Positions 987 to 29,896 of a DNA stretch of 64,000 nucleotides are shown one piece after another. The DNA is from an uncultured Fibrobacterota bacterium (lineage in GTDB: Bacteria; Fibrobacterota; Chitinivibrionia; Chitinivibrionales; FEN-1185). The stretch spans positions 161,302 through 225,301 of the forward strand of contig CAVWBU010000035.1 in the NCBI GenBank assembly GCA_963753345.1, read 5' to 3'. The notes under the pieces were generated by a model. That model ran no database searches and was not told where the DNA came from. It saw nothing but the letters and a program-made list of their open reading frames with translations. Each line of letters begins with the position of its first letter. Within the stretch, counting starts at the first letter, position 1. Both the position numbers and the translations under genes were made by a program.

Positions 987-1463
987 TCAGAAAGAGATGG
1001 GCGTTCCTGCCGCGTCCAATGCCCCGCCCATACGGTCGGATATGTCAATTTCATTGTCCAAATGATGTTCGAAACCCGTTGTCCAATTGGCAGGATTGTT
1101 CTTGATGTATTGACAAATGGCATATCTGGATTTGCCATCACGGATGATATGATCGTAATAATTGCGTTGCCATATTTTTTCAATCCCGTGTTGTCGAATC
1201 GCGTTGATTTGTTTGGACGCGGACGCGCGAATAACAATGATCCCGTGAATGTGGTTCGGCATAACGATGAATTCGTCCAAACGGATGCGGGGATAATGTG
1301 ACGGCGAATCGTTCCAACATTTACGAACAATATTTCCATAATCGTTTTGGACAATGATCCCGCCAACCACGTCCCCGAATAATTTTTGGTTCCGATCGTG
1401 AATGCAAACCGTGATGAAATACGCGCCGGGCAGGGAATAATCGTACCCGCGCAGACGAGCCAT
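987..1463 (-). mobile_element. REP-associated tyrosine transposase (RAYT, Y1 HUH family), possibly internally deleted
   Basis: RLRGYDYS.PGAYFITVC N-terminus, HUH motif VMPNHIHGII, WQRNYYDHIIR and catalytic-Tyr helix YIKNNP. The usual (I/V)xxFKS segment between HUH and WQR appears missing. Confidence 0.85.
995..1040 (+). repeat. Truncated 5' head of repeat A at the RAYT 3' end
   Basis: agatgggcgttcc..cgcgtcca....cggtcgg matches the head of the copy at 16320 (agatgggcgttcccgcgtccatgaggacgcggtcgg). Confidence 0.75.
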
Positions 1464-1465
1464 CC

Positions 1466-1567
1466 AATTTTAGAATGTAGATTTGAAATGCGAAATCAAT
1501 CCTACCTATGTCCTGACTGCACCTTCCGTTCTCTTGTCTGCAATCCGCATTCTACAATCCACAATTA
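1466..1567. repeat. Two facing heptamer tandem arrays (approx. GA(T/A)TG(T/C)N units) with a ~35 bp spacer
   Basis: + strand aatttta gaatgta gatttga aatgcga (1466-1493); - strand aattgtg gattgta gaatgcg gattgca (1566-1539). Confidence 0.65.
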
Positions 1568-1570
1568 ATT

Positions 1571-1584
1571 GGCGGGGCGCCCAT
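1571..1584 (-). repeat. Truncated 5' head of repeat A upstream of the RAYT gene
   Basis: atgggcgccccgcc is identical to the head of the copy at 12864, with the same AT-rich upstream context. Confidence 0.6.
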
Positions 1585-1593
1585 ATTAATATT

Positions 1594-2682
1594 TCACGAT
1601 TCCAATTCAATCTCCACGTTTCCCGGCGCAATGTCCCTGAGCTTCGCCGTGCCCGAACCGTCGGCGGTCCCGTGCCTTGTTTCTCCCGATGCAAGACGTG
1701 CCGTGAACTTCCTGTTAGCGGCAGCCTTGCCGTCCTTGTCGTTAAGCTGGATTTCCACATCGCCGTGAAGGTAGAGCGGCCCGGATTGCCCGGAAAGCTC
1801 GCCGATGCCGGCCTTGAAAAAGAAGAACGGAAGGCTGTACAGGCCCTTTTTGGTTTTTGCATTGCATATCGTCAGGAATTTTCCGTCGGCCTTCATGGTC
1901 CACTGCCGCCGCACCTGATTGTTTTGTACCACAGCCTCGATTGTTTCGAGCAGGTGATCTCCGTAATTGCCGTCGCGGACATAAATATCGAGCACCGCCT
2001 TTTCCCCGTTGTCAACGCCCTCCGTATCCACCTCAAGAGAAACCGGCTTTCCCGCATCGGCCTCCCGCGCCGACCACGCGACGTTGACAATTGCGCGAAG
2101 CGTCACGGCGTAGCTGCCCTCGGGAACGGAGGTCATGGCGATGCGGCCGCCGAGCACGCCGCTCCGTTTCGCCTTGTCCGGGTATTCGAGCGTATAGCGC
2201 ATGCCGCCCACGGGCAGGTTGGCGTCGTCCACAAAACTCATGTCGAGGAAATGGTCGCCCTGCTTGTTTGTCTGAGGGGATTGATGGGACATGGCGGCGC
2301 TTGCGAGCGCGCCTGCCGTTGCGGTTCCTCCGCCGCCACCGCCGCCCGCGCCGGCGCCCCCGCTTCCTCCGCCCGCGCCCGCTTCACCGATGAGAACGGT
2401 CATGCATCCCACAATGATGGAGCTGGGCGGACCCACGCACATGGCCATGTCGCCCATGCGTGCGGCGGGCATGCCGCCGATGAACACGCCGGTGCTGCCG
2501 AGGAGAATGGATCCGCCCACGTGGGGAATGGGCGGCGTGCCGGGAGTCGCCATGGGGCACACGTGCATGTCGCCCATGCGGGCCGCGGGCATGCCGCCGA
2601 TGAGCACGGTGGGGCAGCCGGGCCCGGTAATCACCCCGCCGTGGCAGGTGGAATCGCCGAGTCGCGCAGCGGGTTTACCCAT
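1594..2682 (-). CDS. PAAR-repeat spike-tip protein with Gly-rich linker and C-terminal extension
   Basis: Three PAAR motifs (PAARLGD, PAARMGD x2) with His/Cys ligands, a poly-Gly linker, then ~230 aa of beta-rich sequence. Confidence 0.92.
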   Translation of the reverse strand: MGKPAARLGDSTCHGGVITGPGCPTVLIGGMPAARMGDMHVCPMATPGTPPIPHVGGSILLGSTGVFIGGMPAARMGDMAMCVGPPSSIIVGCMTVLIGEAGAGGGSGGAGAGGGGGGGTATAGALASAAMSHQSPQTNKQGDHFLDMSFVDDANLPVGGMRYTLEYPDKAKRSGVLGGRIAMTSVPEGSYAVTLRAIVNVAWSAREADAGKPVSLEVDTEGVDNGEKAVLDIYVRDGNYGDHLLETIEAVVQNNQVRRQWTMKADGKFLTICNAKTKKGLYSLPFFFFKAGIGELSGQSGPLYLHGDVEIQLNDKDGKAAANRKFTARLASGETRHGTADGSGTAKLRDIAPGNVEIELES

Positions 2683-2700
2683 GCTTCTTCTCTGTGTCTT

Positions 2701-3759
2701 TTAGTTTGCAAACGGGACATACCTTATTGTCAACTCGAGCCCCTTTGAGATCCTGATGGACGAGATGAACCGCCAGATGTCCCACTGCTTTCCGCCAAGG
2801 GAAACGGTGCCCGCCTGCAGCATGTAGGTGGTGACGCGGCCTTCCTGGCGAAACCGTATCATCCTGCAGTCCTTGATAAGGAGTTGCTTGAGCACGCCGA
2901 TCAGCGCGGAAATCTGGTCGCCGTCGGTGATGGCATGCATGCCGGCGTTGAGCCCGGCATCAATCTGCGCGGAGTCATTTTTCCAGTCGTCCGATCCCTT
3001 GCCGCCGTTCACGCTGTCAACGAAATCCTTGATGCGCGAGGGGCCGTCGTCTCCGATGAGGAGGCCCGGCGAGTTGATCACGCCGAGGTCGTTGGGATTT
3101 ATGGTGAGGGGCGATAGGATGTCGAAGAGCTCGAAGCGCGTGTCCGTGTCGTCTATAAATTCGAAATCGGACATGGCGAGCTTGTCGTAGCGCGCGCCCT
3201 TGCGCACCTCCGCGTACTTAATCTGGAACACCGTCGAGCTGAACGCCGTGTCGGTGTTGAACCAGAAGAAGCACTTGCGCATGTTGACTTCCTCATGGGT
3301 GAGCGGGCCGCGCGTGCCTTCGCGCGCGTCCCAGTCGAACGTGAACTGGAAGGCGGGTTTTTCGTCAAGTTTCACCGTGATCATTTTGGGCACGCTGTTG
3401 TCCTCGAGGCAAATGAAGTCTTTCCTGCATCCCGGTCCGAGCACCATGCCCTTGATCTTCTTCTTGTCCGGAAACCTGATCTCCATCCATTGCCCTTCGC
3501 CGCTAGTCTGGCTGCCCTCAACCCATGTAGTGGTGGAATCGGTATCGAACATGTGCAGGAGAACGTTGGAAGTCGGATCGTTCCTGCTCCCCATGAGCTC
3601 CGAGGACCCGCGCACGATGGCGGTCCTTCCGTCGATGACCAGGGTGTCGTTGACGATGTAGACGGTTGCGGCGGCCGAAAACGGCGCGACACAGAGCGTC
3701 GGGAGAACAAGCAGGCGCGCGAGCGCAGAAACCGGACGGCTGAGGCGGCAAGGGTTCAT
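2701..3759 (-). CDS. Exported protein with discoidin/F5-8-like glycan-binding domain
   Basis: Hydrophobic signal ending in AAA; motif FDTDSTTTWVEGSQTSGEGQWMEIRF; later ..YAEVRKGARYDKLAMSDFEF. Confidence 0.6.
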   Translation of the reverse strand: MNPCRLSRPVSALARLLVLPTLCVAPFSAAATVYIVNDTLVIDGRTAIVRGSSELMGSRNDPTSNVLLHMFDTDSTTTWVEGSQTSGEGQWMEIRFPDKKKIKGMVLGPGCRKDFICLEDNSVPKMITVKLDEKPAFQFTFDWDAREGTRGPLTHEEVNMRKCFFWFNTDTAFSSTVFQIKYAEVRKGARYDKLAMSDFEFIDDTDTRFELFDILSPLTINPNDLGVINSPGLLIGDDGPSRIKDFVDSVNGGKGSDDWKNDSAQIDAGLNAGMHAITDGDQISALIGVLKQLLIKDCRMIRFRQEGRVTTYMLQAGTVSLGGKQWDIWRFISSIRISKGLELTIRYVPFAN

Positions 3760-3832
3760 AATGGTTCCTTTGAAAAAATTGGTCTGCAGGGGCACCTCTC
3801 AAAAATGGCATTTCGCAGGGCAGGGGAGCACG

Positions 3833-6004
3833 TTAGTTTATCATCACCATGGTTCCCTTGACTTTTGCCATCACGTCGCCCGACACCTCGGTCATCATTC
3901 CTTCGAGTTTTGCCTGCATGCTTCCCTTGACCGATGCGTTCATCTGGGCCTCCAAGGTCACGTTCATGCCCTTGACTTCCACGTCCGTGTCCGCTTTTTC
4001 GCTGATTTTCATTCCCGCCATGGTGAAATCGGTGGTCGCCTTCTGTTCGATTTTTCCTTGTGACGACAGCGAGATGTTCGCCGCCTTTATCGTAAGGTCT
4101 TTTGCCGCGCTTATGGTGATTTCGCCCTGCGAATCGAGGAGCAGCTTGCCGCTGTTGCCGTCGAGCGTCACGGTATTTTTTCCCGCGGCGTCGGTGAGGC
4201 CGATCTTCTTTCCGTTGTCGTCCATTTCGAGGAGGTTGCCCGCCTTGGTCTGAATTGTCAATTTCTTGTTTGTGTCGTCTATCCTGATAACGTGGCCGCC
4301 GTCCGTTGTAATAACGATGCCTTCGCTGCCGCTCTTATAGGTCATGGTGATGGAGTGGCTCTTCGCGTTCCACGACGCGCATTCGTTCTTGTCGTCGAGC
4401 ATGAGCTTGTTTTTGTCCTTGGTCTGGACAAACGCGCATTTGAGGTCGTCGTCCATTTCGAGGGTGTGCTGCGCGTTGGTGGTGAGCCGCACCTTCTGCT
4501 TGGCGTCGGTGTCGTCGAGCAGAAGCTCGTTGCCGCCCGCGGTGCGGATCACGTTCTGCTCCTTGTTCGCGCTTGCCACCGGGGAGACCGTGTTGGCGTT
4601 GGGAACCGTGGCGAGGCCCAAGGGCCGGTCCGGGTTGCCGTCGATGCACGCCCACACCATCTCCGTGCCCTCGTGGGAGGGAAAGTGCATGCCGTAGTTC
4701 GATCCGGCATAGGGCTGCGCGAGCCGGATATAGCGCGATGCATCGTAGTTCTTCGCGTTCGACACATCGAACGGCATCCGGACCTTGTAGCGCCCCATGT
4801 CGTCGAGGCCGGCGTAGCTGGAGCCGCTCGCCTCTATGGCGGCGGTCATGATGCCGCTTATGCGCGGGGCGGGCGTCACCGGAATGGGCCGGAAGGCGTC
4901 CGCCTGTGCGGCCGGGATGCAACAGAAGCGGTTGGCATAGGTGTATACGTTCGCGCTCTCGCCTTCCATGGTGTGGCTTCCCTGGTGCTCCACCCGCGTG
5001 AGCACGTATTTGCCGTTGACGGCATCGAGAAAGTGCTCGGTGAGCGTGAACCGTTTCGCCGCGCGCATGCCGCGGCAGTTGCCGCTTCCCTCGTACACGA
5101 GCCTGTGCGCCGCATACCGGTTGGCGGTTATTTCGGCGAGCCTGTCGGCCTCGGTGGTGTTCTTGAAATGGCCGCCGTATTCGTACACGGTGCCGGTGTC
5201 GCCGCTCTTTACCGGCTTGCGGGCCGAAAGGTTGATTTCGGGCGTGCGGTAATTGTAGTCCCTGAGGAGCACCTCCCTCGGCACGATCCGCCGTAGCGAC
5301 TCGAAGCCGTGGATGGACTCCTTGTCGTCTTTGTCAATCTGCTCGGCCATGCCCGAGACGGAGCGGTACAGGACGTCGGAGGAGGTCGCCACGAAATCGA
5401 ACGACGACGGCTTGTCGGAAACAACGAGTTTCTCCGCGCCGCAGCTGCCGTCGAGCTCCTCGGCCAGAATGGGATTCTCGTTGAAGAAGTACCAGAGGCC
5501 CGCCGCCTCCATGAGGCGCGCGATGAAATTGAGATCCGATTCCCGGTACTGCACCACGTACTCAAGTTCCGGGTATTTCCCTTCGTCAACCTGTAGTGTG
5601 CAGTAGTCTGAGAGGCCTGCGGCGTCGAGCACCTGCTTGACAATCCGGCTCACCTTTATCTTCTGGAAGATGCGGGTCTGCACGTTGAGGTTGAGGAGCC
5701 ACAGGCGCGGGACGAGCGTGAGCACGTAGGTGGCGCGGTCGAGGCTCTTGCCCACGAACCGGAACTCCGAGACGATGCCCGAATAGGGGTAGTATTCGCC
5801 GTCGCGGAAGATGTACAGGGTTGCCGCCTTGTTCACTACGCTGTCGGGCGAGAGGTCGGCCTTCTGCGCAATGAGCATGATGTTGAATTGGTACACCGAG
5901 GAAATCCTGTCGGTGCCGGCAAAATTCATCACCTCGAACGACTCGGCCGGCAGGCCTGCCGAAAAGAAGTAGAACTGGGCGCGGTTGGCTTTTTGCAAGG
6001 GCAT
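3833..6004 (-). CDS. vgrG: Type VI secretion/contractile injection spike protein VgrG (TssI)
   Basis: YVVQYRESDLNFIARLMEAAGLWYFF, RDYNYRTP, DDMGRYKVRMPFD, RLAQPYAG..YGMHFP, DGNPDRP, followed by gp5-like beta-helix repeats. Confidence 0.95.
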   Translation of the reverse strand: MPLQKANRAQFYFFSAGLPAESFEVMNFAGTDRISSVYQFNIMLIAQKADLSPDSVVNKAATLYIFRDGEYYPYSGIVSEFRFVGKSLDRATYVLTLVPRLWLLNLNVQTRIFQKIKVSRIVKQVLDAAGLSDYCTLQVDEGKYPELEYVVQYRESDLNFIARLMEAAGLWYFFNENPILAEELDGSCGAEKLVVSDKPSSFDFVATSSDVLYRSVSGMAEQIDKDDKESIHGFESLRRIVPREVLLRDYNYRTPEINLSARKPVKSGDTGTVYEYGGHFKNTTEADRLAEITANRYAAHRLVYEGSGNCRGMRAAKRFTLTEHFLDAVNGKYVLTRVEHQGSHTMEGESANVYTYANRFCCIPAAQADAFRPIPVTPAPRISGIMTAAIEASGSSYAGLDDMGRYKVRMPFDVSNAKNYDASRYIRLAQPYAGSNYGMHFPSHEGTEMVWACIDGNPDRPLGLATVPNANTVSPVASANKEQNVIRTAGGNELLLDDTDAKQKVRLTTNAQHTLEMDDDLKCAFVQTKDKNKLMLDDKNECASWNAKSHSITMTYKSGSEGIVITTDGGHVIRIDDTNKKLTIQTKAGNLLEMDDNGKKIGLTDAAGKNTVTLDGNSGKLLLDSQGEITISAAKDLTIKAANISLSSQGKIEQKATTDFTMAGMKISEKADTDVEVKGMNVTLEAQMNASVKGSMQAKLEGMMTEVSGDVMAKVKGTMVMIN

Positions 6005-6028
6005 GGAAGTCTCCTTATGTATGATAGA

Positions 6029-8185
6029 TCAAAGATTCACTATTTTTCCCGCCGCGTTCTTTGCGTCCTTTTCCGCGTTCGGGTCGATCGACTTTGCAAG
6101 GTCTGCCGCCGCGCCCGCGCCCGCGGGCAGAAACGACGAGAGGTCGACCGAAAGGCTCGAAAACAGGTTGTTCACAAACGCATCCGCCTCCGCGCCCGAT
6201 GCGGTGAACGCCACGTTCCCGTTTACGTTTTTGCCGATGCCGGGAATTGCCTTGAGCGAGATGATGCCGCTCAGGTTTCCGCTCTTGTGCTCAAGAGCGA
6301 ATGGAACGGCCATGGTCGCTCCCGCCATTGCCGACAGCGCGCCCATGGACTGCACGCTGCCGAGTTTCCGAAACTCCCCGCTCTCCGAAGCGCGCCATTC
6401 CACGGTCGCCGCAAGCGTACCCTGTCCTGCAACGGCGGCGCCCACCGACGGGATCCCGCCCGGCAGGGATCCTCCCGCCGTTTTCGAGCCGAACGCGTAG
6501 CCGGAAAGCTCGATGTGCATCCGCACAAAGCAATGGGCGCCAGGCTTGACAAGGCGCGAGAGAAGGGGCACGGCCTTGACTACGGCAACGAGGTCGAACC
6601 CCTGGTTGTCCGGAACGTCCCATTTTGCGTTCGCAATGCCGTCGACGACCGAGCCATTGTTGAACCACGAAAGAAACGACTGCGCCGCGCTCGTCACCTC
6701 GCCGGTTTTCTTTTCGATGAAATCGATGACGTTTGTGAACTGCGACGAGACGAGCGACGAAAACCCGTCCTGGGATCCGGTCAGGTCGGAGCAGTACTTG
6801 TGCACCACGCACGCGAACACGTACTCGATGAGCCGCATGCCCTCGTCCGATTGCACGTCGAACGCCAGCGAGCCGCTCCCGGACAGTCCCTTTACGTATT
6901 TGAGCGGCACGGAGACTCGGAGCGTTTTGTCCGAGAAAGCAACCGAGAGCTGAGAAGCGGTGCCGAGCGGCGCAGTGAGGTCGACGGTGGCGAGATCGGC
7001 GAACTCCTGTTGTTCGCCCTTGCTCCAGCTTATTGCGCCGGAAAGTTTGCCCTGTGCCTGCGCGGAGCCGGCAGCGCCGAGATTGGCTTGGGGAACCGGC
7101 GGAACGCCGCTGCCGAAGGAAAGTCCGGGCAGGGAAATAAAATGCGAGAGCTCGCCTTCAGCGCAGGCATAGCCTTTTGCCGCAATCGAAAGCCGCAGCA
7201 GACAGGCGGGCGAAGCTCCCTGCTTCGATTGCGCAACGCCGAACAGATCGAACAGGTTGACCCCGGATTCGCCGGGAAGGTACCATGCGCCCGACAATGT
7301 GCCTGTGTCAAGCGCGAACCCGAGATTGCCCGCGTCGCCGAGCGGGATCTTCTTTTCCAGTTCGTCAAGTTTGTCGGAAAGCCCGCACCCGGCAACGAAC
7401 CGCACGAACCGCGCCGTGACGGCCGAGGAGAACGTCTGGGCTGCACCCGATGCGGCTGCCTGCGCATCGGCGAATTTCCACTGCCACGGCCATGCGCCTT
7501 TTTCCTGCGCGCCGGGGCAGAGCGCCGAGAGCGCGTCGCTTGCCAGGCCGGTGTCGCCGTCGCTTTCCCTGAGGCTGTCGAGCATGTCGCGCACCGAAGC
7601 GTCGGCCGCGTCTTTCCAGGTTCCTGTGCCTGAAATGCGTTTGGGCCGTACAAAGAGCCGGGCAAGCGATTCGTCCCAGTCCGGGTGCTTGGTGACCGCA
7701 ATGAGTTCGTCGATTGCGTCCTTTGGCGCGCTTTTGAGCCCTTCGAAAAAGGTCTCCGCCTCGCGGGAGAGGTCCTGCATGGCGGTGAGCATCGCCGCGA
7801 AGTCCTGCCCTTGCCATCCGTCAAGTATCTTCTGCGCCAGGTCTTTGGCCGCGTTCGCCTCGTCGCTGAGCGCGGCAAAGGCGTTGTCCTTTGCGGCTTC
7901 CAGAACGCAATATTTCTTGAGCGCCGGCGAAAAGAATATCATGACGTCGGTTGCCTTTTTTGCAAAGAGCGTAAGCGTGACGGTCGATTTCCCGCCGCTT
8001 GACTCGCGCGATTTCTCGCCGTACAGCCGCGGCGGGATGGACAGCGCCGTGCCTTGTGCGGGAGGCTGGGAATCGTCCTTGACCTTGTTGAATGAGGCAA
8101 GCGGCTTTGCCGCAGCCTCGTCGCCGAAGAACTTCTTTGCCAGCGATGAGAACGTGTCGCCCGATGCAACCGTGTAGTCGGCCAT
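6029..8185 (-). CDS. LysM-domain protein, putative VgrG-associated effector
   Basis: N-terminal YTVASGDTFSSLAKKFFGD...GTALSIP LysM domain; RBS aaagga before ATG 8185; directly upstream of vgrG. Confidence 0.7.
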   Translation of the reverse strand: MADYTVASGDTFSSLAKKFFGDEAAAKPLASFNKVKDDSQPPAQGTALSIPPRLYGEKSRESSGGKSTVTLTLFAKKATDVMIFFSPALKKYCVLEAAKDNAFAALSDEANAAKDLAQKILDGWQGQDFAAMLTAMQDLSREAETFFEGLKSAPKDAIDELIAVTKHPDWDESLARLFVRPKRISGTGTWKDAADASVRDMLDSLRESDGDTGLASDALSALCPGAQEKGAWPWQWKFADAQAAASGAAQTFSSAVTARFVRFVAGCGLSDKLDELEKKIPLGDAGNLGFALDTGTLSGAWYLPGESGVNLFDLFGVAQSKQGASPACLLRLSIAAKGYACAEGELSHFISLPGLSFGSGVPPVPQANLGAAGSAQAQGKLSGAISWSKGEQQEFADLATVDLTAPLGTASQLSVAFSDKTLRVSVPLKYVKGLSGSGSLAFDVQSDEGMRLIEYVFACVVHKYCSDLTGSQDGFSSLVSSQFTNVIDFIEKKTGEVTSAAQSFLSWFNNGSVVDGIANAKWDVPDNQGFDLVAVVKAVPLLSRLVKPGAHCFVRMHIELSGYAFGSKTAGGSLPGGIPSVGAAVAGQGTLAATVEWRASESGEFRKLGSVQSMGALSAMAGATMAVPFALEHKSGNLSGIISLKAIPGIGKNVNGNVAFTASGAEADAFVNNLFSSLSVDLSSFLPAGAGAAADLAKSIDPNAEKDAKNAAGKIVNL

Positions 8186-8196
8186 TGCCGGTCCTT

Positions 8197-8634
8197 TCAC
8201 TGTCCGAGTGATTCATTGCCGTGGAGCCACGCCGCAAGCGGCCCCTTTGCGCGAACCTCTTCCGGAACGCGCACCGCCGCGAGCGCGCCGGCATCCCACA
8301 GGGCTTCGAGAAAATGCAGCCTGCCTTCGATGTCGCCGTATTCCGTAACGAAAAACTCCTGCCGCACCGAAAGGTATTCCTCCGCGGAAAGCTGCGAGAC
8401 GATGTCTTCCACCGTGCCAACAAGGTCGACAAGGGACTCGCGGTCGATAAGCCGCCGCACCTCGTCGAATGAGGCGGGGAGAAAGGGGCACTCCTGCGGC
8501 GACGCTCCCATATGCCGTTTGTGGACAAACAGTAATTTTCCCGGAAACACATATCCGAACCTGAGGCGCTCGCACGGCTTTGACAGGCAGCTTTTGCAGC
8601 CGGGAAAAGAAAGAATGGCTTTGGATTCGTGCAT
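8197..8634 (-). CDS. Hypothetical protein with Cys cluster (CxxCxxxxC...C), first gene of the VgrG cassette
   Basis: ORF whose stop lies 11 bp before the LysM start. Start uncertain (8634 or 8697). Confidence 0.55.
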   Translation of the reverse strand: MHESKAILSFPGCKSCLSKPCERLRFGYVFPGKLLFVHKRHMGASPQECPFLPASFDEVRRLIDRESLVDLVGTVEDIVSQLSAEEYLSVRQEFFVTEYGDIEGRLHFLEALWDAGALAAVRVPEEVRAKGPLAAWLHGNESLGQ

Positions 8635-8709
8635 GGCGCGGTCCTGGGGGATGAATAGATAGAATATAAATACGGGGGAAAGGATGATTTGTGACATGAG
8701 TCACAAAAA

Positions 8710-8763
8710 AATGTAGATTGTGGAATGAAGAATGTAGATTGATCAGGTGCAGTTAGGACACAG
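8710..8763 (+). repeat. Heptamer array followed by AGGTGCAGTTAGGACA, an inverted copy of 1506-1567
   Basis: aatgta gattgtg gaatgaa gaatgta gattgat then aggtgcagttaggacacag, versus aggtgcagtcaggacatag on the - strand at 1524-1506. Confidence 0.55.
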
Positions 8764-8877
8764 AGTCAACGTGGTGGACCGTGCAAGGCCGGAAATGTTC
8801 AGCCCTCGAAGGGCCGTTATTCAGTGCCATAGAGCAGACATCTGCTTGACGTTAAGCTCGTCAATACACATATAAAT

Positions 8878-12430: not shown

Positions 12431-12445
12431 TAATAAAGAGAAAAA

Positions 12446-12607
12446 TTGGGCGTTTCCCTCGCCCTCGTAAAGACTCAGGCTCGGGTCGGCCCTCCTTCCG
12501 GTCTCGGCCTTCGGCCTCGGGCCGCCACGGCCCTATGCCGCGGTAGCGGCGGGTCCGGGCGGCATCCCGCTTTGGCGGGACCTCCAGTCCTGCCTAACGC
12601 GCGGGCA
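12446..12607 (+). repeat. Repeat A copy 1 (structured ~160 nt element)
   Basis: ttgggcgtttccc..gggtcggccctccttccggtctcggccttcggcctcgggccgcc..gggcggc..cctccagtcctgcctaacgcgc; homologous to five other copies. Confidence 0.9.
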
Positions 12608-12665
12608 TCGGATAGTGTGCCGGTGACCTCAAGGTCGGCAGGGAGAAGCGACTGTTTGGAGCGTG

Positions 12666-12866
12666 CAAAGGGAATCCCAATTGGCGCGAGAAATACTTGT
12701 TGACTGAATAGATTCCCTATGCCGCGCGCCAGGCAGGACTGCAAGGTGCGCTGGAGCGCATTGCCGCCTGACCACGGCCCGCAGGGCCCTCGTGGCAGGC
12801 GGCAACGAGGCCTTGTGCCGAGCCTGGAAGGAGGGCCGCCGCCGCAAAGCGGCGGGGCGCCCATCT
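12666..12866 (-). repeat. Repeat A copy 2 with 3' tail
   Basis: rc agatgggcgccccgccgctttgcggcggcggccctccttcc..gccgcctgccacgagggccctgcgggccgtggtcaggcggc..cagtcctgcctggcgcgcggca, plus tail aatctattcagtcaac..gcgccaat shared with copies 5 and 6. Confidence 0.9.
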
Positions 12867-13936: not shown

Positions 13937-13976
13937 TAAAGGCGCTCTACGAAAATAGAGCGCCTTTAGTTTTTTT
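13937..13976 (+). terminator. Intrinsic terminator
   Basis: 13 bp stem taaaggcgctcta/tagagcgccttta followed by a T-run. Confidence 0.85.
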
Positions 13977-14035
13977 ACTTTTAAGATTTATACATGGGTG
14001 GAAGTCCAGCCTGTCTCAAAACTCAAGAGAAGATC

Positions 14036-14171
14036 TGGGCGCCCCGCCGAAGACGGCGGCGGCCGTCCTTCCGGTCTCGGCCTTCGGCCTCGGGCTGCCT
14101 GCCACGAGGGCCCTGCGGGCCGTGGTCAGGCAGCACCGCACTTTGGCGCGGCCTCCAGTCCTGCCTGGCGC
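14036..14171 (+). repeat. Repeat A copy 3
   Basis: tgggcgccccgccgaagacggcggcggccgtccttccggtctcggccttcggcctcgggctgcctgccacgagggccctgcgggccgtggtcaggcagc..cctccagtcctgcctggcgc. Confidence 0.9.
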
Positions 14172-14423
14172 AAATACCACCATTCGGGTATCAGGTGAAT
14201 TTCACTATTCCGCTTGCGCAAGACCATATCTTCCGCAACTTGTCAACCTGCGCAACCAATACTGCGTTGTGGCGGCACCCACGAGCTATAGGTGACAAAA
14301 GATTCAATTTCGGTTTTTTTCGTCATCAGCGCCGAACCTGAGGCCGGAGGATAGTCCCTCGTGCTGTCCGAGCCGGGGCCCCACGAACGAGGGATCAGGC
14401 GACGCCGTTTGTTGTCTGAAGCT

Positions 14424-15788
14424 TTACCTGGCGAGAACGAATCTGCCGGTGCAGAAATGCCCGTCGATCGCGGTGATATGCAACAAATAGAGGCCTTTTG
14501 AAAGCGATTTTGTTGAAATTGTCAATAATTCGTCTGATGGAGATAAACTTTCAGAATACACTTTTCTTCCGTTGACGGCAAACAGCTCCACGCTGATCAA
14601 ACCCTGATTCCGCAGCTTGGGCAATCTGATCGACAGAAACCCCCTTTGCGAATTGAGCACAGAGAGCCCCAAGTCAGAGCTTGTGTTTATCATGCGGTCC
14701 TTAACTTCCATGGGAGGAACCGTTGCAAAGTACGGCCCTCCGTCACAAACAACGAGTTGGCCGTTTCCATAAGCGGAAGAGTAAAACTCAATAGAAGAAG
14801 GAGGGTTTGGGTCCCGATGCCAGACTGCCCCGTCTGAAGAATAGAGTAAGATGCCGGTTGTATTTGTACCTAAGTCCCCCTGTGACCCGGCCGCCACGAA
14901 CATGCCGTTTTCAAAATTTATGGAACGAAAAATCGTTAGAGAGAGGGAATCGCTTTTAGTCCATACGACCCCGTCGGTCGACCTTAACATATAGGAATAC
15001 AACAGTCCGCCGCCGGACCCTCCTGCGACAAAGCAATTGTTTCCGTATGCAACCGATAGCAGGCTGCCGCCCTGGTTGGGCGGCGGCGCAGAGATACCCG
15101 ACGCTCTATTTGTCCAATTGATGGCATCAGGGGATGTTAGAATCACACCATTGTTTCCAACAACGACATATAGGCCTTTGCCATAGCATACGGCGTTAAA
15201 CATATAGGAACTGGAATCGACAGTACTCCAAACCAAGCCGTCCTGAGAAACCCCCATATACCTTGGGCCCACTGCTACAAATTGACCGTTGCCATACATG
15301 ACAGATATGAAACGTGAAATCTGAAGGTTGTTTCCCGTCAGCATGACGGGCTGCATATCCGGCTCCCGGGCTGCAAATACCGCCCCCTGGGAATTGAACT
15401 TTACCTGTTCGCTGCCTACCGCAACGAACAAACTATCTCCGTAAACAACGGAATAAAGGCCGCAGTCAGTGAGACTGTAACCAAAACAAGTGTCGTTGCC
15501 CCCGAAGCTTCTCAATTCCCAGGTAATGCCGTCGGAAGAGGTAAGCATCGCGCTGATAGTAATGGATCCATTTGCTCCATTATAATTGCTAACACCATAA
15601 TCCCCAACAGCAAGAAATCGCCCATTGCCAAATGTAACGGAGTTGATGTGAAAGCTTCCGGGATATCCCGGAGGAGGTATCAATGCGGAGAGATCGGGTA
15701 GAACGCCTTTTTGCCAGTTATATTGACCGAAACAAAGGAAAGAAATCACGTATATGAACATTGTCGTCTTCGCAAGAATATTTTTCAT
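14424..15788 (-). CDS. Secreted beta-propeller (BNR/YVTN-like repeats) with T9SS type A-like C-terminal domain
   Basis: Signal peptide; repeats of V.YGNG.FVAVG...S.DG..W; C-terminus VELFAVNGRKV...LSKGLYLLHI. Visibly lower GC than flanks. Confidence 0.8.
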   Translation of the reverse strand: MKNILAKTTMFIYVISFLCFGQYNWQKGVLPDLSALIPPPGYPGSFHINSVTFGNGRFLAVGDYGVSNYNGANGSITISAMLTSSDGITWELRSFGGNDTCFGYSLTDCGLYSVVYGDSLFVAVGSEQVKFNSQGAVFAAREPDMQPVMLTGNNLQISRFISVMYGNGQFVAVGPRYMGVSQDGLVWSTVDSSSYMFNAVCYGKGLYVVVGNNGVILTSPDAINWTNRASGISAPPPNQGGSLLSVAYGNNCFVAGGSGGGLLYSYMLRSTDGVVWTKSDSLSLTIFRSINFENGMFVAAGSQGDLGTNTTGILLYSSDGAVWHRDPNPPSSIEFYSSAYGNGQLVVCDGGPYFATVPPMEVKDRMINTSSDLGLSVLNSQRGFLSIRLPKLRNQGLISVELFAVNGRKVYSESLSPSDELLTISTKSLSKGLYLLHITAIDGHFCTGRFVLAR

Positions 15789-16167: not shown

Positions 16168-16320
16168 TGCCAAGCGTTAGGGGCGACTGGAGGCCGCGCT
16201 GGAGCGTGGTGCCGCCCGGACCCGGCCGCTACCGCGGCTTAGGGCCAGGCGGCCCGAGGCCAGAGCCCGAGACCGGAGGGAGAACCGACCGCGTCCTCAT
16301 GGACGCGGGAACGCCCATCT
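16168..16320 (-). repeat. Repeat A copy 4
   Basis: rc agatgggcgttcccgcgtccatgaggacgcggtcggttctccctccggtctcggg..gccgcctggccctaagccgcggtagcggccgggtccgggcggc..cctccagtcgcccctaacgc. Confidence 0.9.
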
Positions 16321-16921: not shown

Positions 16922-17030
16922 GATTGGCGCGCGGTTCCGGGAGGAAGTGGCGGACCGGCGGTATGATCAATATAATAATTTGTTGCGTCAGGGGTAAAAT
17001 CGCATTTGTTAAGAAAAGGAAATTATCATG

Positions 17031-17222
17031 TGGGGGAGGTATACTCCGTCGGGTACTTCCAAGGGTCGTCCTCCTCGCTTCAGCCCGGCGCGCCTCCTCA
17101 TGTTGTGGCTCATTGTCAATGGCGCACCGGTCTTCCGCTACCCCCTCCTGGGTGCACCCCTTGAAGGGACAGTTGCAAGATCAAACACCTGTGCGGGGGC
17201 ACCCGTGGAGAGCAGTTGAGAA
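17031..17222 (+). repeat. Repeat B copy 1
   Basis: Shares cccctcctgggtgcacccc..gcaaga.tcaa.cacctgtg.gggggcaccc..ggagagc.gttga with rc of 29724-29803; head gggggaggtatactcc. Confidence 0.8.
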
Positions 17223-17255
17223 ATTCAAAGAGAAATAGATGATTCTATTCCATGA

Positions 17256-17450
17256 GGATTCGGGGTGGCGGGAGCAATAATCTTGACTGAGTAGACTTCT
17301 TCTGCCGCGCGTTAGGCCGGAACGGAGGTCGCGCTGGAGCGCGATGCTGCCTGACCACGGCCCGCAGGGCCTTTGTGGCAGGCAGCCCGAGGCCGAAGGC
17401 CGAGACCGGAGCGAGGGCCGCCCGCGTCCCATGGACGCGGGAACGGCCAA
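17256..17450 (-). repeat. Repeat A copy 5 with 3' tail
   Basis: rc ttggccgttcccgcgtccatgggacgcgggcggccctcgctccggtctcggccttcggcctcgggctgcctgccacaaaggccctgcgggccgtggtcaggcagc..ggcctaacgcgcggca, plus tail agtctactcagtcaag. Confidence 0.9.
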
Positions 17451-17466
17451 GTCTTTTCTTTGACTT

Positions 17467-23819: not shown

Positions 23820-23853
23820 GGTCGGTCCTTTCCCGTGCCTGTGCACGCGCCAA

Positions 23854-24937: not shown

Positions 24938-25091
24938 GAGTGCTTTTTGATTGCCGATGCAAGGGCGATGATTTTCCGCGGCCACATTTCCGTACGTCGC
25001 GCCGGCCCCGGACTTGATATTCATTCATTTACAATATAAATTAGTACGGGTTGGTGCGGGTACAGGCTGTAGAAACAGGGTGAGAATGAGG

Positions 25092-26747
25092 CTATTTGAC
25101 CACCGTAAACCCCTTCACCGTCTCGCTTTTCTCGTAAATCGCTTTTGCAAAGTACCTGCCAGCCGCATGGCTGGGAAGCCAGACAGCTTGATTATTACAG
25201 ATAGACAAATTCTCCAGCAACTGGCCTCGCATGTCGAACACACGAAGTGATGATGTTCCGGCAGGAAGCGAGAAGCGGACTTTTTTGGAAGAGAACTGGT
25301 TGATGGAAATATCATTTTGTGAATGATTCGTTTGACGGGAAACCGGGTTGGCAGTTTTGGTCGGATAGTCTTTGCTGTTCACGAAGATATTAAATGTCAA
25401 GGTGTCCTTATTGCCGAAATCGTCGGACACGAGGAATTCAACATGGTCCATATATGAGGAATCTGTTGTCGGTGTCCAGGATATTGTTCCGCCCACGGAG
25501 ACAGTCATGCCGGAGGGGACTTTGAGGGGAGTATAGCCGTGGTTGATCGAGTCGCCGGAGACGGGGATCTTGAAAGTAAAGGAAAAGGACTTGTAGGCGT
25601 AGCGGTCGGATATGATTGAGAGGAGGCAGGCAAGATCTCCGCGACCCGAAGTAGGTGCTCCCCGTCGCGATGAAATTGCCATCACTTGTCGGAGTGATGT
25701 CATCTGCATAAACGTCACTGGTGACTGTTTGGGTCCATACCGTATCGCCATCAGGGGTTATCTTGAAAATGTATGCCTTTGAAGATCCCGTGCCAATAGA
25801 CTCCGTATACGCTGTGACAATAAAGTTTCCGTCCGTACTTGACGTGATTGATTTCGCGCCGGCTACGCCTATACCAGTGAATGTTCTGGTCCATACCGTA
25901 TCGCCGTTGGGTTTGATTTTCAGAAGATAGGCCTTTGAAAATCCGGTGTCATACGGGAATGCATGCCCTGCGACAATAAAGTTTCCATCTGCATCTGCCG
26001 TGATTGCCCAAGCGACATTAAAGTCGCTCCGGCCGTATTTTCTTGTCCACAGCGTATCGCCGTTTGGGGTGACCTTGAGCAGGCAAACCTGGGAATACCC
26101 GTTTCCGTTTGTGGTTGATCCGGCAATAATGAAATTTCCTTCAGGTGCCGGCGCGATGGCACAGCCCGTGTTAAAGTCGCCAAGGCTGTATTTTTTAGTC
26201 CACAGCGTGTCGCCGTTCGGGGTGACCTTGAGAAGGTAAACATCAGAAGGTTCTCCGTTGAAAGAGAGGCCTCGCCCGCGACAAGGAAATTTCCGTCGGG
26301 CGTGGCGTTGACGGCAAAAGCAGTCCCTCCGACGGGGATTGTTCTTGTCCATATCGTATCACCATTTGAATTGATTTTCAGAATATATACATAGGGCTGT
26401 TCGCCGTATTTACTTGTTGTCCCGGCAACGATGAATTTTCCGTCTCCGGCCGCTGCAATGCCATTTGCGCAGGCTTCCCCTGTGCCGTTATATGTTTTGG
26501 TCCATACCGGATTGCCGAAGGCGTCGGTTTTGAGCAGGTACATTTTCATGGGGCTGCCGGTTGTATAGGTGTTCCCCGCGCCAACCAGGTGGCCGTCCGC
26601 AGTCGCTGAAATGGCGGAAAGCGCACAGTAATCCTCCGGAGTGCTGCAGGTTCTCTTCCAGTATGTCTGGCCTGCACAGTCACTCGCCAATGTCAACGCC
26701 GCAAGCGCGAACATCACCATCTTTATTGCCGATTTTTTGTAAGTCAT
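25092..26747 (-). pseudogene. Secreted repeat beta-propeller with Ig-like and T9SS-like C-terminal domains, split by two frameshifts (~26265, ~25645)
   Basis: Repeats YLLK..PNGDT.WT..Y / DGNFIVAG continue across three frames; VPSGMTV...TISWTP Ig-like segment; LRVFDMRGQLL...AGRYFAK C-terminus. Could be an intact gene with assembly indels. Confidence 0.7.
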
Positions 26748-26770
26748 AAAGAACTCCTTGTTCCTCCGTT

Positions 26771-26870
26771 GACCTCACCCCTGTTTCCCCTCTCCGATAG
26801 GAGAGGGGATGAAGGTGGCTATTTTACTCTCCCCTCTCCGGGCGGAGAGGGGAGAGGGAGGGGTGAGGTC
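26771..26870. repeat. ~100 bp composite palindrome (CCCCTCTCC..GGAGAGGGG family)
   Basis: 11 bp terminal inverted repeats gacctcacccc/ggggtgaggtc enclosing two cccctctcc/ggagagggg hairpins. Confidence 0.85.
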
Positions 26871-26955
26871 TATCTTGATTTCACACCCAATAATATATGT
26901 AAGGAAACCCGAAAGTGAAGCTTGCCGTAGAGAAAGTGTTTTCTTGCAGAAAATA

Positions 26956-27756
26956 CTAGCGGTTCCCCTCTCCCCGTGGGAGAGGGGTCGGGGGTGAGGT
27001 CCCGAACGCCCTGTTAAAATTCCTCTCCGTCGCCGCGGCGAATTCCTCTTCGTCCATCTTCCTGATCTCCGCGATCTTCTTTCCCACAAGGGCCACCCAT
27101 GCAGGCTGATTCGGCTTCCCGCGGTGGGGAACAGGGGCGAGATAGGGCGTGTCGGTTTCAATGAGGATCGAAGCGAGGGGGGCGCAAGCGACAACTGAAG
27201 CGAGTGAGGATTTTGCGAACGTGACGATGCCCGAGAACGAGACAAAATACCCCGCGTCGGCAAGTGCCTTCAGGGTCGTTGCATCGCCGGTGTAGCAGTG
27301 GAACACGGCCCGCTTCACGCCCGCGGCTGCGCACATGTCAAGCGCGCGGTGCTCGCAGCCGCGTGAGTGTACGATGACCGGTTTGTCGAGCCGTTTGGCA
27401 AGTGCAAGGTGCTTTTCGAAAAAGGATGATTGCAGTTCGAAAGAAGGATAGGCGGGGTTTGTTGCGTCAATGCCGGTTTCGCCGACCGCGATGACGCGAG
27501 GATCGGCGAACAGTGCAGCAAGTTGCTCTTCCCACAACGGTGGTGCATCGTTCACGTCAAACGGTGAAATCCCCACCGCGGCAAACAGGCCTGGATGGCC
27601 GGCGCATTGCGAAATGACGGTGTTGCTTGACGAAAGGGATGTTGCGGCATTGAGGATGCGGTGCACGCCGTTTGCGCGGGCATGATCAACGGTTGCTTTG
27701 AGCGCGGCGTCATCGCAACGGTAAAGGTGGGCGTGTGAGTCGGTCCACTGGATCAT
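26956..27756 (-). CDS. tatD: TatD family DNase
   Basis: DSHAHL, VGETGID, VHSR, FHCYTG, ETDTPYLAPVPHRGKPNQP. Confidence 0.93.
   Translation of the reverse strand: MIQWTDSHAHLYRCDDAALKATVDHARANGVHRILNAATSLSSSNTVISQCAGHPGLFAAVGISPFDVNDAPPLWEEQLAALFADPRVIAVGETGIDATNPAYPSFELQSSFFEKHLALAKRLDKPVIVHSRGCEHRALDMCAAAGVKRAVFHCYTGDATTLKALADAGYFVSFSGIVTFAKSSLASVVACAPLASILIETDTPYLAPVPHRGKPNQPAWVALVGKKIAEIRKMDEEEFAAATERNFNRAFGTSPPTPLPRGEGNR
26964..27001. repeat. Half copy of the same palindrome inside the tatD 3' end
   Basis: tcccctctccccgtgggagaggggtcgggggtgaggtc; encodes ..TSPPTPLPRGEG in TatD. Confidence 0.8.
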
Positions 27757-27768
27757 GGCCCGATTGCG

Positions 27769-28755
27769 TCAGGTCCGGTTCTTGAACACGGCGGCCCACT
27801 TTGCCAGGTTCCAGATTTCGGGTTTCTTCATGCCGCGCCCGATCTTGAAAATCACCACGTCTTTGGCCTCGATATGGAAGGGCTTGCCGTTGAAGGTATA
27901 CTCGAGAAGGCTGTTGTTGCCAACGCAGACGTCAAAACTGTCGCGGGCGACGCACCGCTTGGTCTGGTTTGCCTTGAGCCAGTTCTTCCAGGACACGCCA
28001 TCCGAAAAGATCTGGATCCACACCGAGTCTTTTTTCGCTTTTATTTCCAGCGAAAGAATTCCGCGTCCCATGGAAATGCTGTCAACGGCTATTGCCGCGG
28101 GAGAGCCGGTGTCCGGCGCAGTCGCAGCCTTGGGTGCGGGGATGGGGGCGGGCGCGGGGATGGGGGAGGGCACGGCGGCGACCGTGTCGTGCCGCACCAT
28201 TTTTCCGATCAAGCTGTCTTCCGCCGCGTCTGTCGGGGCGGCCTTATGAACGGCCGGTTTTGAAGTATCGGTGCGCGCCGAAACCGCGGCCGGAGCCGCG
28301 CGGGGAGCAATCCCCGGCGCACCGGCCTTCCTGTTTGCAAAGAAGCTTACAACGCCGAGAACGACGATGACGCCCACGATGATCATCCACGGCTTGAGCT
28401 CCTTTTTTCCGGGCTTTTTTGCCATGGTGATGACGATTTGCGTGTCGCTGCCTTTGCGGAAATTTTCGTCGTGGATGCCGCGCTCCTCATAGAATTTTTT
28501 GAGGACCGCCTCGGGATCGAGGAGAAGATACTTGGCAAGCGAGCGAAGGTAGACGCGTATGTACGGGTCGGCAGGGAGGTTGGTGTAATCGTTCACTTCG
28601 AGCGAACGCACGTACTGGACGCTCAGCTTGAGGTCCTTGGCGATGGTTTCGAGGGCAATGCGCCGGGCAATGCGTTCTCTGCGGAGGATGTCGCCCACGC
28701 GCTCGGGCCCGGTCTCCTCTTTCGCCTGCCCGCCGGCTTCATTTTCTTCAGACAT
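27769..28755 (-). CDS. rodZ: RodZ-like helix-turn-helix membrane protein
   Basis: GDILRRER..LETIAKDLKL..YVRSLE...YIRVYLRSLAKYL HTH, one TM helix, C-terminal SVWIQIFSDG...VGN domain. Confidence 0.8.
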   Translation of the reverse strand: MSEENEAGGQAKEETGPERVGDILRRERIARRIALETIAKDLKLSVQYVRSLEVNDYTNLPADPYIRVYLRSLAKYLLLDPEAVLKKFYEERGIHDENFRKGSDTQIVITMAKKPGKKELKPWMIIVGVIVVLGVVSFFANRKAGAPGIAPRAAPAAVSARTDTSKPAVHKAAPTDAAEDSLIGKMVRHDTVAAVPSPIPAPAPIPAPKAATAPDTGSPAAIAVDSISMGRGILSLEIKAKKDSVWIQIFSDGVSWKNWLKANQTKRCVARDSFDVCVGNNSLLEYTFNGKPFHIEAKDVVIFKIGRGMKKPEIWNLAKWAAVFKNRT

Positions 28756-29359
28756 TCGGTGCGCCCTTTCGATCGGCGTATGACGCAAACAGATCAATGG
28801 TTTTTCTCACCGGCAGCCCCACCACATTGTAGTAGCAGCCGTCAATCCTGTCGATAAATGCCATGGCCCTGCCCTGGATGGCATACGCTCCGGCTTTGTC
28901 GCAATACTCCCCGCGGCTGAGGTACTCGTCGATTTCCCATTGCGCAAGGGACCTGAACTGCACCGCGGTGGTCTCGATAGCGCCGGCCGCAAACCCGCAT
29001 TCGCCGCACACGAGCGCCACCGACGTCAGCACCGTGTGCCTGCGGCCGGAAAGCCGCCTGAGCATGGTCGCGGCGTCGCTCTTGGTCGTCGGCTTCCCGA
29101 GTGCCACCCCGTCAATTGAGACGACGGTGTCCGCGCCGAGCACCAGCGCGTCGGGTCGCGATACCGACACCGATTGCGCCTTGGCAACGGCAAGTGCCGC
29201 AAGCTCTTTGTCAAGCTGACGCCCGGAGAAAAAGTCGGCCTCATTTTCCACTGACGGTCGCACGACATCAAACTCGAAACCCAGGGCCGAGAGAATCTCG
29301 CGCCGGCGAGGGGATTGCGAAGCAAGAATAATGCGCCTATCGGGATTTCTCCACACCAT
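28748..29359 (-). CDS. maf: Maf nucleoside triphosphate pyrophosphatase
   Basis: ILASQSPRRREIL, GADTVV, LGKP, DKAGAYAIQG, NVVGLP. Confidence 0.95.
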   Translation of the reverse strand: MVWRNPDRRIILASQSPRRREILSALGFEFDVVRPSVENEADFFSGRQLDKELAALAVAKAQSVSVSRPDALVLGADTVVSIDGVALGKPTTKSDAATMLRRLSGRRHTVLTSVALVCGECGFAAGAIETTAVQFRSLAQWEIDEYLSRGEYCDKAGAYAIQGRAMAFIDRIDGCYYNVVGLPVRKTIDLFASYADRKGAPNV

Positions 29360-29439
29360 GGTAAATATACTTATCCTTCGGCATGCGCGGCAATGGGCCG
29401 TAGTTCTAGTGGGGTTATATGAAAATCAAAAATAACAAA

Positions 29440-29651
29440 TTGGGCGTTCCCCTCGGCCTCGCATGGGCGCGGCCTCGGGTCGGTTCTCCCTCCGGTCTCG
29501 TCCTTCGTTCTCGGGCCGCCTCGGCCCTATGGCCCACAGGGCCGGGTCCGGGCGGCACCGCGCTCTGGCGCGGCCTCCGGTCGCCCCTAACGCGCGGCAG
29601 TGGAAATCTATTCTGTCAACTTCTTTTTTTGCGCCAATCGGCATCCGCTTG
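29440..29651 (+). repeat. Repeat A copy 6 with 3' tail
   Basis: ttgggcgttcccctcggcc..ggcctcgggtcggttctccctccggtctcg..gccgcctcggccc..gggtccgggcggc..cctccggtcgcccctaacgcgcggca, plus aatctattctgtcaac..gcgccaatcggcatcc. Confidence 0.9.
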
Positions 29652-29656
29652 AAATC

Positions 29657-29728
29657 TACTGTCAACTGCCAACTGTTTACGCCTTTTCTTCTCAATCTCT
29701 CAACTGCTCAACTTCTCAACTATTCAAC
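29657..29728. repeat. Short heptamer and octamer tandem arrays between A6 and B2
   Basis: ctgtcaa ctgccaa ctgttta, then ttctcaat ctctcaac tgctcaac ttctcaac tattcaac. Confidence 0.7.
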
Positions 29729-29896
29729 CGCTCTCCGTGGGTGCCCCCACACAGGTGCTTGATTCTTGCCACTACCTTCACTTGGGGTGCACCCAGGAGG
29801 GGATTGCGCCCGCCCAACAGGAAGGGCGGAAAGCGCCGCAGGACACCGCAGGCCGAAGGCCGAGGAGGCCGGAGCGAGGGGGATACTTCCCCTCTC
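29724..29896 (-). repeat. Repeat B copy 2
   Basis: rc gaggggaagtatccccctcgctccggcctcctcggccttcggcctgcgg..cccctcctgggtgcacccc..cacctgtgtgggggcacccacggagagcggttga; the middle part resembles repeat A. Confidence 0.8.

Follow-up and report, generated by a model that had tools for sequence, protein, structure and literature searches.

A family of large, structured and mostly paired intergenic repeats in the Fibrobacterota, closest in build to BIMEs and REPINs

Results

Two repeats form five convergent pairs in a 64-kb window

We analyzed a stretch of 64,000 nucleotides (nt) from an uncultured Fibrobacterota bacterium of the Chitinivibrionales (assembly GCA_963753345.1, contig CAVWBU010000035.1, positions 161,302 to 225,301 of the forward strand), referred to below as the window. 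Its spacers carry copies of two related repeats, A and B, and near one edge lies an open reading frame (ORF) that resembles the REP-associated tyrosine transposases (RAYTs), enzymes linked to repetitive extragenic palindromic (REP) sequences and to their inverted doublets, the REPINs. A preliminary description of this DNA had listed six A copies, two B copies and two truncated A heads, and our searches recovered all ten. Namely, an nhmmer profile built from the six A copies returned exactly those six in the 64 kb (E 4e-30 to 2.4e-37), with the next-best match at E 0.28 and zero A copies between 30 and 64 kb. The two B copies match their joint profile at E 4e-68 and 3e-63 and align well with each other over the inner 110 nt, more poorly at the heads. 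The head word TGGGCGYYCC occurs six times exactly in the window, four times at A copies and twice around the RAYT-like ORF (998 on the forward and 1574 on the reverse strand), and two of the six A copies carry it with one mismatch.

Within the window all ten ends resolve into five convergent pairs, as had been described, with head-to-head distances of 422, 2287, 422, 462 and about 586 nt. Two subtypes can be told apart among the A copies: alpha (A1, A4 and A6), with the head TGGGCGTT, and beta (A2, A3 and A5), with a head that is mostly TGGGCGCC. Feature coordinates are collected in Table 1.

The repeats belong to a family in related genomes

Species-representative genomes were scanned with a degenerate 30-nt pattern of the A core. 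Exact matches were found at no fewer than 43 loci, of which 38 come from one Chitinivibrionales metagenome-assembled genome (MAG), three from a Fibrobacterota MAG, one from a Fibrobacteres MAG and one from an Acidimicrobiia MAG. At the Acidimicrobiia locus (L013, 2001-2030) the exact match lies within a 652-amino-acid ORF and profile search found no A copy; a match of this kind in an unrelated phylum indicates that such GC-rich patterns yield chance hits, and the locus was set aside. The family counts given here therefore cover the window and the 42 loci of the three related genomes, among the matches listed. Profile searches of these loci gave at least 50 further A copies and at least 26 further B hits, which with the window makes 56 A and 28 B. 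The repeats had no match in the plasmid and phage collections, and a literature search for repeats in Chitinivibrio or Fibrobacter found nothing relevant. Many of the loci from the related MAG end at or close to a repeat copy.

Pairing was tabulated for the 48 of the 56 A copies whose inner side has 600 nt or more of sequence. Of these 48, 28 sit in tight convergent pairs with their heads 367-530 nt apart: 22 copies are paired with a B and six with another A (three pairs). A convergent partner lies 1.3-2.3 kb away from four further copies, the next element has the same orientation at four, and a partner is absent from the locus at 12. Among the apparent solos, a diverged B-like partner is recognizable in L002, L008 and L022, and the linker alone in L017, L025 and L021. 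The preliminary description had held that the copies always occur as inward-facing pairs and had proposed this tabulation of orientation and spacing in relatives. That claim stands for the window but not beyond it: with 28 of 48 testable copies tightly paired, and with B-like partners or linker remnants at some of the solos, convergent pairing is the rule, not a law.

A full unit measures about 370-530 bp. It begins with an A arm of 147-204 nt, followed by a tail with GTCAA and GCGCCAATCGG motifs, TCAAC repeats with a period of about 9-10 nt, and the B core (GGGTGCCCC...GGGGTGCACCC), which is followed by a variable hairpin and the terminal GGGGGAAACTTCCCCC hairpin. The second, inward-facing arm is either a B or an A of the other subtype, and all four A/A pairs in the window and the loci combine alpha with beta. 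The heads of A and B share an identical 15-nt block and align with a score of 45, compared with 30.3 ± 5.1 (maximum 46) in 500 shuffles; on this comparison the B head is probably a distant relative of the A head. Furthermore, an optional 27-nt module, ACCCCTTCGGGT-ACTTCCA-GGGTCG, is found at the same place in B1 (window 17043-17075) and in four A copies (L006, L010, L024 at 951 and L021 at 128), which points to modular exchange between A and B.

The A arm has a covarying fold

The consensus fold of the A arm, derived from 53 A copies, comprises 33 pairs in seven helices. It is closed by a helix between head and foot (GCGTT/AACGC) that covaries to GCGCC/GGCGC. Canonical pairs fill 96.0% of cells in the fold as opposed to 85.6% in shuffles, 16 of the 33 pairs are changed on both sides, and the covariation score of 0.328 (against 0.155) was equaled by none of 500 shuffles. 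When the partners were slid by 1-3 columns as a control, 30-44% of cells paired. Hairpin tips differ in length among copies. Compensatory changes of this kind are spread over dozens of copies whose sequence identity is otherwise only about 65%, and from this we infer selection on the A structure, acting either site by site or each time it is copied. The B core helix receives modest support, with 96.7% versus 93.4% canonical pairs and six pairs changed on both sides. A long hairpin between the two arms of an A/A unit is also thermodynamically possible (58 of 159 pairs between arms), but the loops of the two arms do not covary in aligned units and this fold was rejected. In L028 (1961-2168) an A copy is split: about 68 nt of inserted sequence separate its profile positions 84 and 87.

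Selection on a fold raises the possibility that the units, or the A arm, act as RNA, either as structured modules in cis within operon transcripts (stabilizers, processing, attenuation) or as multi-copy noncoding RNA genes that run from the A head to the B hairpin. Several observations are consistent with such a role. The covariation is strong and extends over a 150-nt multi-helix fold whose hairpin tips vary in length. The distance of the units to gene ends is 4-50 nt, and the 41 elements flanked by an ORF at either side divide into 27 between co-oriented genes, six between convergent and eight between divergent ones (several of the latter on doubtful ORFs); placed so close to genes, and so often in a tandem context, the units must often be transcribed. 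Read in the A orientation, a unit terminates in a GC hairpin that is followed by a T-rich flank. Moreover, both arms show a raw excess of G-U over A-C wobble pairs in the A orientation: 99 versus 21 in the A arm and about 50 versus 3 in a B-side pyrimidine/purine helix.

This excess is an uncertain guide to the strand, however. In the A arm it derives mostly from five subtype-fixed columns, for which an alternative register, with a bulged T that is conserved, does just as well, and without those columns about 16 G-U face 24 A-C and neither strand is favored. Strand assignment from wobble pairs was abandoned, as the raw counts favor the A orientation but hang on few ambiguous columns. An RNA role is further opposed by the occurrence of A arms in both orientations within one unit, and also as solos, by their mixed orientation relative to flanking tandem genes (four sense, 10 antisense), and by hairpins that are mostly triloops. 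No consistent promoter-like site was found. Rfam 15 gave no match in the window at the gathering score and only chance-level eukaryotic hits on the units (E 0.09-1), and the window holds no tRNA or tmRNA, so that a known RNA family was rejected. Intrinsic terminators at the A heads were likewise rejected, since a simple terminator scan accepted only one of the six window A heads, and the upstream neighboring gene of A3 has a strong terminator of its own at 13937-13968. On balance we regard a function of the units as RNA as an unlikely primary explanation.

Copies are diverged and lie beside housekeeping genes, and orphan heads break at or near a hairpin

In the best-sampled genome the A copies have a mean identity of 65% and a maximum of 92%. 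Two pairs exceed 90% and none of 861 exceeds 95%, and the similarity between genomes is as high as that within a genome. The flanking genes are housekeeping genes, e.g. mutS, glnS, nrd, glyA, pdxA, uvrC, recR and era. The preliminary description had remarked on an A/T-rich stretch before each A head. This stretch is real and is better described as a conserved purine motif, AARA-N-T, immediately 5' of TGGGCG, with A at three of its positions in 48, 41 and 47 of the 56 copies.

Signs of mobility were sought in the same loci. The 21 units with readable ends show no target duplication, and no transposase, TnpB or recombinase domain was found in the 135 locus ORFs or the window ORFs, the RAYT-like ORF excepted. 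A comparison with the PATE-like elements of IS200/IS605 found unit ends that differ and no target duplication, and tnpA-IS200 and tnpB were found neither in the window nor in the 135 locus ORFs. Orthologous sites offered little to compare, as 12 window genes had no orthologue in the loci and a single pair of loci has homologous flanks. In this pair, downstream of a His_biosynth homologue, a solo A lies 31 nt past the stop codon in L036 and none is present in L012; since the next gene differs and synteny is broken, this is not a clean empty site.

Some A copies of a related MAG carry perfect GTAG...CTAC double-foot palindromes, with stems of 18-23 bp, nested in their hairpin tips (Table 1). Their DNA folds reach -23 kcal/mol (z -9 and -10). 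Among 27 GT[AG]G-hairpin matches in 207 kb these three are the double-foot cases, and none lies outside A copies. The A copies of L003 and L023 share the same hairpin H3 with its nested palindrome and differ in head subtype (TGGGCGTT and TGGGCGCC, respectively), a pattern that suggests recombination or gene conversion between A copies. In addition, orphan A-head fragments, consisting of TGGGCG and up to 13 nt more, are found in L018 (about 2085-2110) and L033 (about 860-875 and 2095-2110). These fragments lie 25-30 nt outside full A heads and break at or just before hairpin H1. Together with the two fragments beside the RAYT-like ORF this makes four cases of orphan heads that break at or near H1. 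As the nested palindromes cluster there too, H1 looks to be a hot spot at which copies break or receive insertions, which would point to processing at the DNA level.

A RAYT-like ORF lies between two A-head fragments

The RAYT-like ORF matches NCBIfam NF047646 (REP_Tyr_transpos) at E 2e-13 and 50 bits, where the cut-off is 80 bits, and Pfam returned nothing for it at E 0.01. It aligns to E. coli TnpArep (4er8) over the HUH motif, the WQ...DH..R segment and the YI..NP tyrosine motif. There are 1850 homologues at E≤1e-5, and many among the 120 listed are named RayT by their sources. The 11 closest full-length homologues among the matches listed are 190-264 amino acids long and carry variable inserts, while the twelfth aligned homologue (P0046, 163 amino acids) diverges past the insert. 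Peptides from such in-frame inserts, ten of which were searched by tblastn as possible derivatives of A or B, gave 205 weak hits, 25 of them inside A or B (6% of the sequence) and none above background. The window ORF lacks the N-terminal 22-25 amino acids and a PTLGxxVAYFKYQxT segment that its homologues keep, and an ancestral N-terminus is still recognizable upstream, closed by an in-frame stop. Given the missing conserved segments and this stop, the ORF is probably degraded.

The preliminary description had placed a RAYT gene between A heads, and the two A-head fragments that flank the ORF face outward. They are 14 and about 25 nt long, lack the conserved A core and fold no better than shuffles (z -1.1 and -0.85). 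On its reverse strand the left fragment encodes GGALDAAGTP, which is in part common to the C-terminal tails of homologues P0003 and P0007. The right fragment has matches of 13-14 nt to the beta heads of the window and of 12 loci. The weak palindrome bounded by GTAG...CTAC upstream of the ORF start was seen once, with no second instance among the loci or elsewhere in the window. The RAYT region is bracketed by an 11-nt direct repeat, AATTGGCGGGG (953-963 and 1567-1577), whose right copy falls within the truncated beta head; the repeat scores E 4.8 in a small search and may be due to chance.

Could the A/B units be REPIN-like substrates of this enzyme, their TGGGCG head and H1 recognized in single-stranded DNA and the inverted doublets copied in trans? 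The ORF retains HUH and tyrosine motifs, and exact head 10-mers that are not part of a full A copy occur only twice, on its two sides, facing outward in a geometry like that of a unit. The absence of target duplication is what HUH/Y1 enzymes predict, no other transposase lies near any copy, breakpoints and insertions concentrate at a hairpin, and RAYT relatives of the ORF are numerous. However, this association is seen at one locus, through short fragments without a core or a significant fold, the left of which overlaps C-terminal codons partly conserved in homologues. The flanks of the 43 loci contain no RAYT homologue, although a single-copy gene need not lie there. The lack of any pair above 95% identity is unlike a REPIN population, and the ORF is without conserved segments of its homologues and has an in-frame stop upstream.

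The motifs of the ORF add a further difficulty. According to Quentin et al. 2018 (PMC6006769), TnpA-REP proteins of subclass 2.4 are marked by NH[IFV]H, WQ and YIxNNP motifs, and their cognate repeats have GT[AG]G as the foot. The NHIH, WQ and YIKNNP motifs of the window ORF fit this subclass, and it retains those positions (W, Q, D/E, H and R) that are linked to the recognition of GTAG. In A such a foot is not conserved: the bases at the head read N-T-G-G, and the first of them is T in 32 copies, C in 12, A in nine and G in three (n=56). The perfect GTAG...CTAC palindromes nested in the A hairpins of the related genome would be a better-fitting canonical partner. Taken together, these points make a RAYT-driven REPIN-like system a rather improbable account of the family.

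The interval between A3 and A4 and other genes of the window

The preliminary description had read A3 and A4 as a pair that carries a cargo gene. This reading is not supported. The 454-amino-acid ORF in the interval gave only weak hits to type IX secretion (T9SS) sorting domains and has a single weak relative (22% identity) across the loci, and a misoriented B-core motif lies behind A3. The interval is probably an ordinary gene between two separate, partly decayed or rearranged units. A transposon with long terminal repeats and a transposase of its own was also rejected here, as the ORF is no transposase and has no conserved relative beside other units.

Two features of the window lie apart from the repeats. 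A type VI secretion-like cluster adjoins the RAYT-like ORF (1594-8200). Between 25090 and 26750, direct repeats with a spacing of 153-156 nt (about 52 codons) run through three overlapping ORFs in different frames, the middle of which (25438-26352) has no family in Pfam; this may be a frameshifted repeat-domain gene or a run of separate genes.

Table 1. Repeats, repeat fragments and genes of the window (positions 1 to 64,000), with nested palindromes of related loci.
Feature	Position	Strand	Evidence
A1, alpha; left arm of tight A/A unit 1	12444..12606	+	nhmmer E 6e-33; alignment
Linker of unit 1; GTCAA and GCGCCAAT motifs of A2 tail, conserved	12607..12719	.	alignments
A2, beta; right arm of unit 1	12720..12866	-	nhmmer E 4e-30
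Leader GGGTGGAAGTCCAGCCTGTCTCAAAACTCAAGAGAAGATC before beta-type heads, conserved	13995..14032	+	precedes 8 beta-type heads (window and loci), A3 included
A3, beta	14033..14173	+	nhmmer E 1.6e-32
B-core motif, inverted relative to normal units; remnant of a rearranged unit behind A3	14268..14283	-	exact match; 0.06 expected by chance
A4, alpha	16168..16320	-	nhmmer E 4.7e-34
B1; left arm of unit 3; with the optional 27-nt module of some A copies	17020..17259	+	nhmmer E 4e-68; alignments
A5, beta; right arm of unit 3	17303..17452	-	nhmmer E 2.4e-37
A6, alpha; left arm of unit 4	29438..29599	+	nhmmer E 5.9e-32
Linker of unit 4; GTCAA and GCGCCAATCGG motifs; TCAAC repeats, period about 9-10 nt, continuing into the start of B2	29600..29682	.	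read from sequence
B2; right arm of unit 4; terminates in GGGGGATACTTCCCC hairpin	29683..29907	-	nhmmer E 3e-63; hairpin motif
RAYT-like ORF, 158 amino acids; HIH at 71-73, YIKNNP at 119-124 (Y119)	987..1463	-	NCBIfam NF047646
Truncated A head (TGGGCGTTCC...), over the 3' end of the RAYT-like ORF; breaks within H1	995..1034	+	exact 10-mer at 998; read against A4
Weak palindrome bounded by GTAG...CTAC, 15 nt upstream of the RAYT start	1478..1506	+	DNA fold -2.5 kcal/mol, z -2.4
Truncated beta-type A head, 14 nt, TGGGCGCCCCGCCA	1571..1584	-	exact 10-mer at 1574-1583
Nested palindromes of related loci	L003:1945-1995 and 2040-2084 (H1, H3); L023 about 1955-1990 (H3)		sequence scan
454-amino-acid ORF between A3 and A4; secreted-protein-like, not a transposase	14424..15788	-	weak T9SS sorting-domain hits only
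PAAR-domain protein	1594-2682	-	
Protein with NADase-translocation-type domain	2704-3795	-	
VgrG-like Phage_GPD protein	3836-6004	-	
723-amino-acid protein, no family	6032-8200	-	
Three overlapping ORFs in different frames with 153-156 nt repeats	25092-25751, 25438-26352, 25920-26747	-	

Discussion

These repeats hold up as real, structured and, for the most part, paired; the new family that they make up is closest in build to REPINs and to bacterial interspersed mosaic elements (BIMEs). The explanation that we favor, with a probability of roughly 0.45 and thus tentatively, is that A and B are the arms of lineage-specific composite interspersed repeats of the Chitinivibrionales/Fibrobacterota, similar to BIMEs and REPINs but far larger, which have spread as DNA. 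Each A arm folds on itself into a multi-helix structure closed by the helix between head and foot. Under this model the units would have spread as DNA, in the form of folded single strands, and would have inserted into purine- or AT-rich intergenic sites beside gene ends, leaving no target duplication. The family now looks largely static, and its units are probably co-transcribed with neighboring genes.

Several points weigh against this interpretation. The census relies on exact matches to one A-core pattern and is therefore biased towards A-bearing loci. Near-identical copies are missing from the 861 pairs compared within the best-sampled genome, the loci offer no direct evidence of mobility and no clean pair of empty and filled orthologous sites (in L012/L036 synteny is broken), and for the enzyme behind the spread the RAYT-like gene is a candidate only. 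In addition, the raw wobble counts of the A arm and of the B-side helix lean to one transcribed strand, if these helices and their registers are real. Finally, conservation of the fold in diverged copies fits a function at the RNA level equally well.

Classical MITEs (miniature transposable elements with inverted repeats), that is, deletion derivatives of a DDE-type insertion sequence moved via terminal inverted repeats, would account for many intergenic copies of 370-530 bp with weak inverted similarity between their ends and a conserved AAGAG-like motif outside both, but they are very improbable here given target duplications in none of 21 units, a weak arm similarity (z about 2.9, with a score of 45 where the shuffles reach 46) with heterotypic A/A units, the lack of a parent element and of any DDE transposase in the window and the 135 locus ORFs, and selection on an internal multi-helix fold that is not expected of MITEs. 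Integron attC-like sites, an idea suggested by the GCCTAAC foot, were rejected as well, because the copies face each other and form no array of one orientation.

Composite spread as DNA, our preferred explanation, invites comparison with known repeat families. Correia/NEMIS and ERIC elements are interspersed, a hundred to a few hundred bases long, co-transcribed and able to fold, and in these respects they resemble A/B. However, their terminal inverted repeats are clear, and Correia elements have target duplications as well, whereas A/B units show weak inverted similarity of their ends and no duplication. BIMEs occupy intergenic spacers within and between operons, the same placement as A/B. 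In BIMEs of E. coli, REPs in alternating orientation form mosaics with other motifs (PMC2817692). The A/B family is likewise a mosaic of few modules (A-alpha, A-beta, B, the leader, the optional 27-nt module and the linker motifs) in alternating orientation. Its modules exceed those of BIMEs several-fold in size, and each of them has a branched fold.

The likeness to the REPIN/REP-RAYT systems of Pseudomonas fluorescens and the E. coli REPtron (for background see PMC5581495) extends to dispersed intergenic placement, units mostly composed of two inward-facing structured modules, an HUH/tyrosine RAYT-like gene between outward-facing repeat ends, the lack of target duplication and a vertical, lineage-restricted distribution. 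The differences are substantial, however. REP hairpins measure 20-40 nt, whereas the A module spans 147-204 nt with 5-7 helices and is without a GT[AG]G foot. Each arm of a pair folds by itself, and the two are of different types (alpha/beta or A/B). A copies are about 65% identical and form no cloud around a master sequence, and beside the window RAYT ORF there are short head fragments in place of whole repeats. Of the REPIN-like system originally proposed, a dispersed intergenic family of structured and mostly inward-facing pairs thus stands, but the copies are too diverged for a REPIN cloud. Subclass 2.4 TnpA-REP enzymes with their double-foot REPs (PMC6006769) are matched here by the motifs of the window ORF and by the GTAG...CTAC palindromes of a related genome. 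In contrast, these palindromes occur here only nested in A hairpins (three cases), and the abundant A/B family is footless.

A more far-reaching alternative is that the family represents a structure-dependent class of element, its branched fold of 150-200 nt copied by an enzyme of the RAYT lineage or another HUH enzyme, or else a multi-copy structured RNA, with the fold selected in every old copy. We consider this doubtful and would hold it with little confidence.

In practice these repeats break assemblies. A/B is a candidate structured motif for surveys of RNA and DNA structure, with at least 40 diverged copies per genome in a phylum for which the literature searched describes no repeat family. 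It also supplies a defined set of substrates for RAYT-type enzymes outside Proteobacteria, namely A heads with H1 as opposed to the nested GTAG double-foot palindromes. If the fold is the selected target, then bacterial interspersed repeats would extend well past REP hairpins, to a branched module of about 160 nt with 16 covarying pairs.

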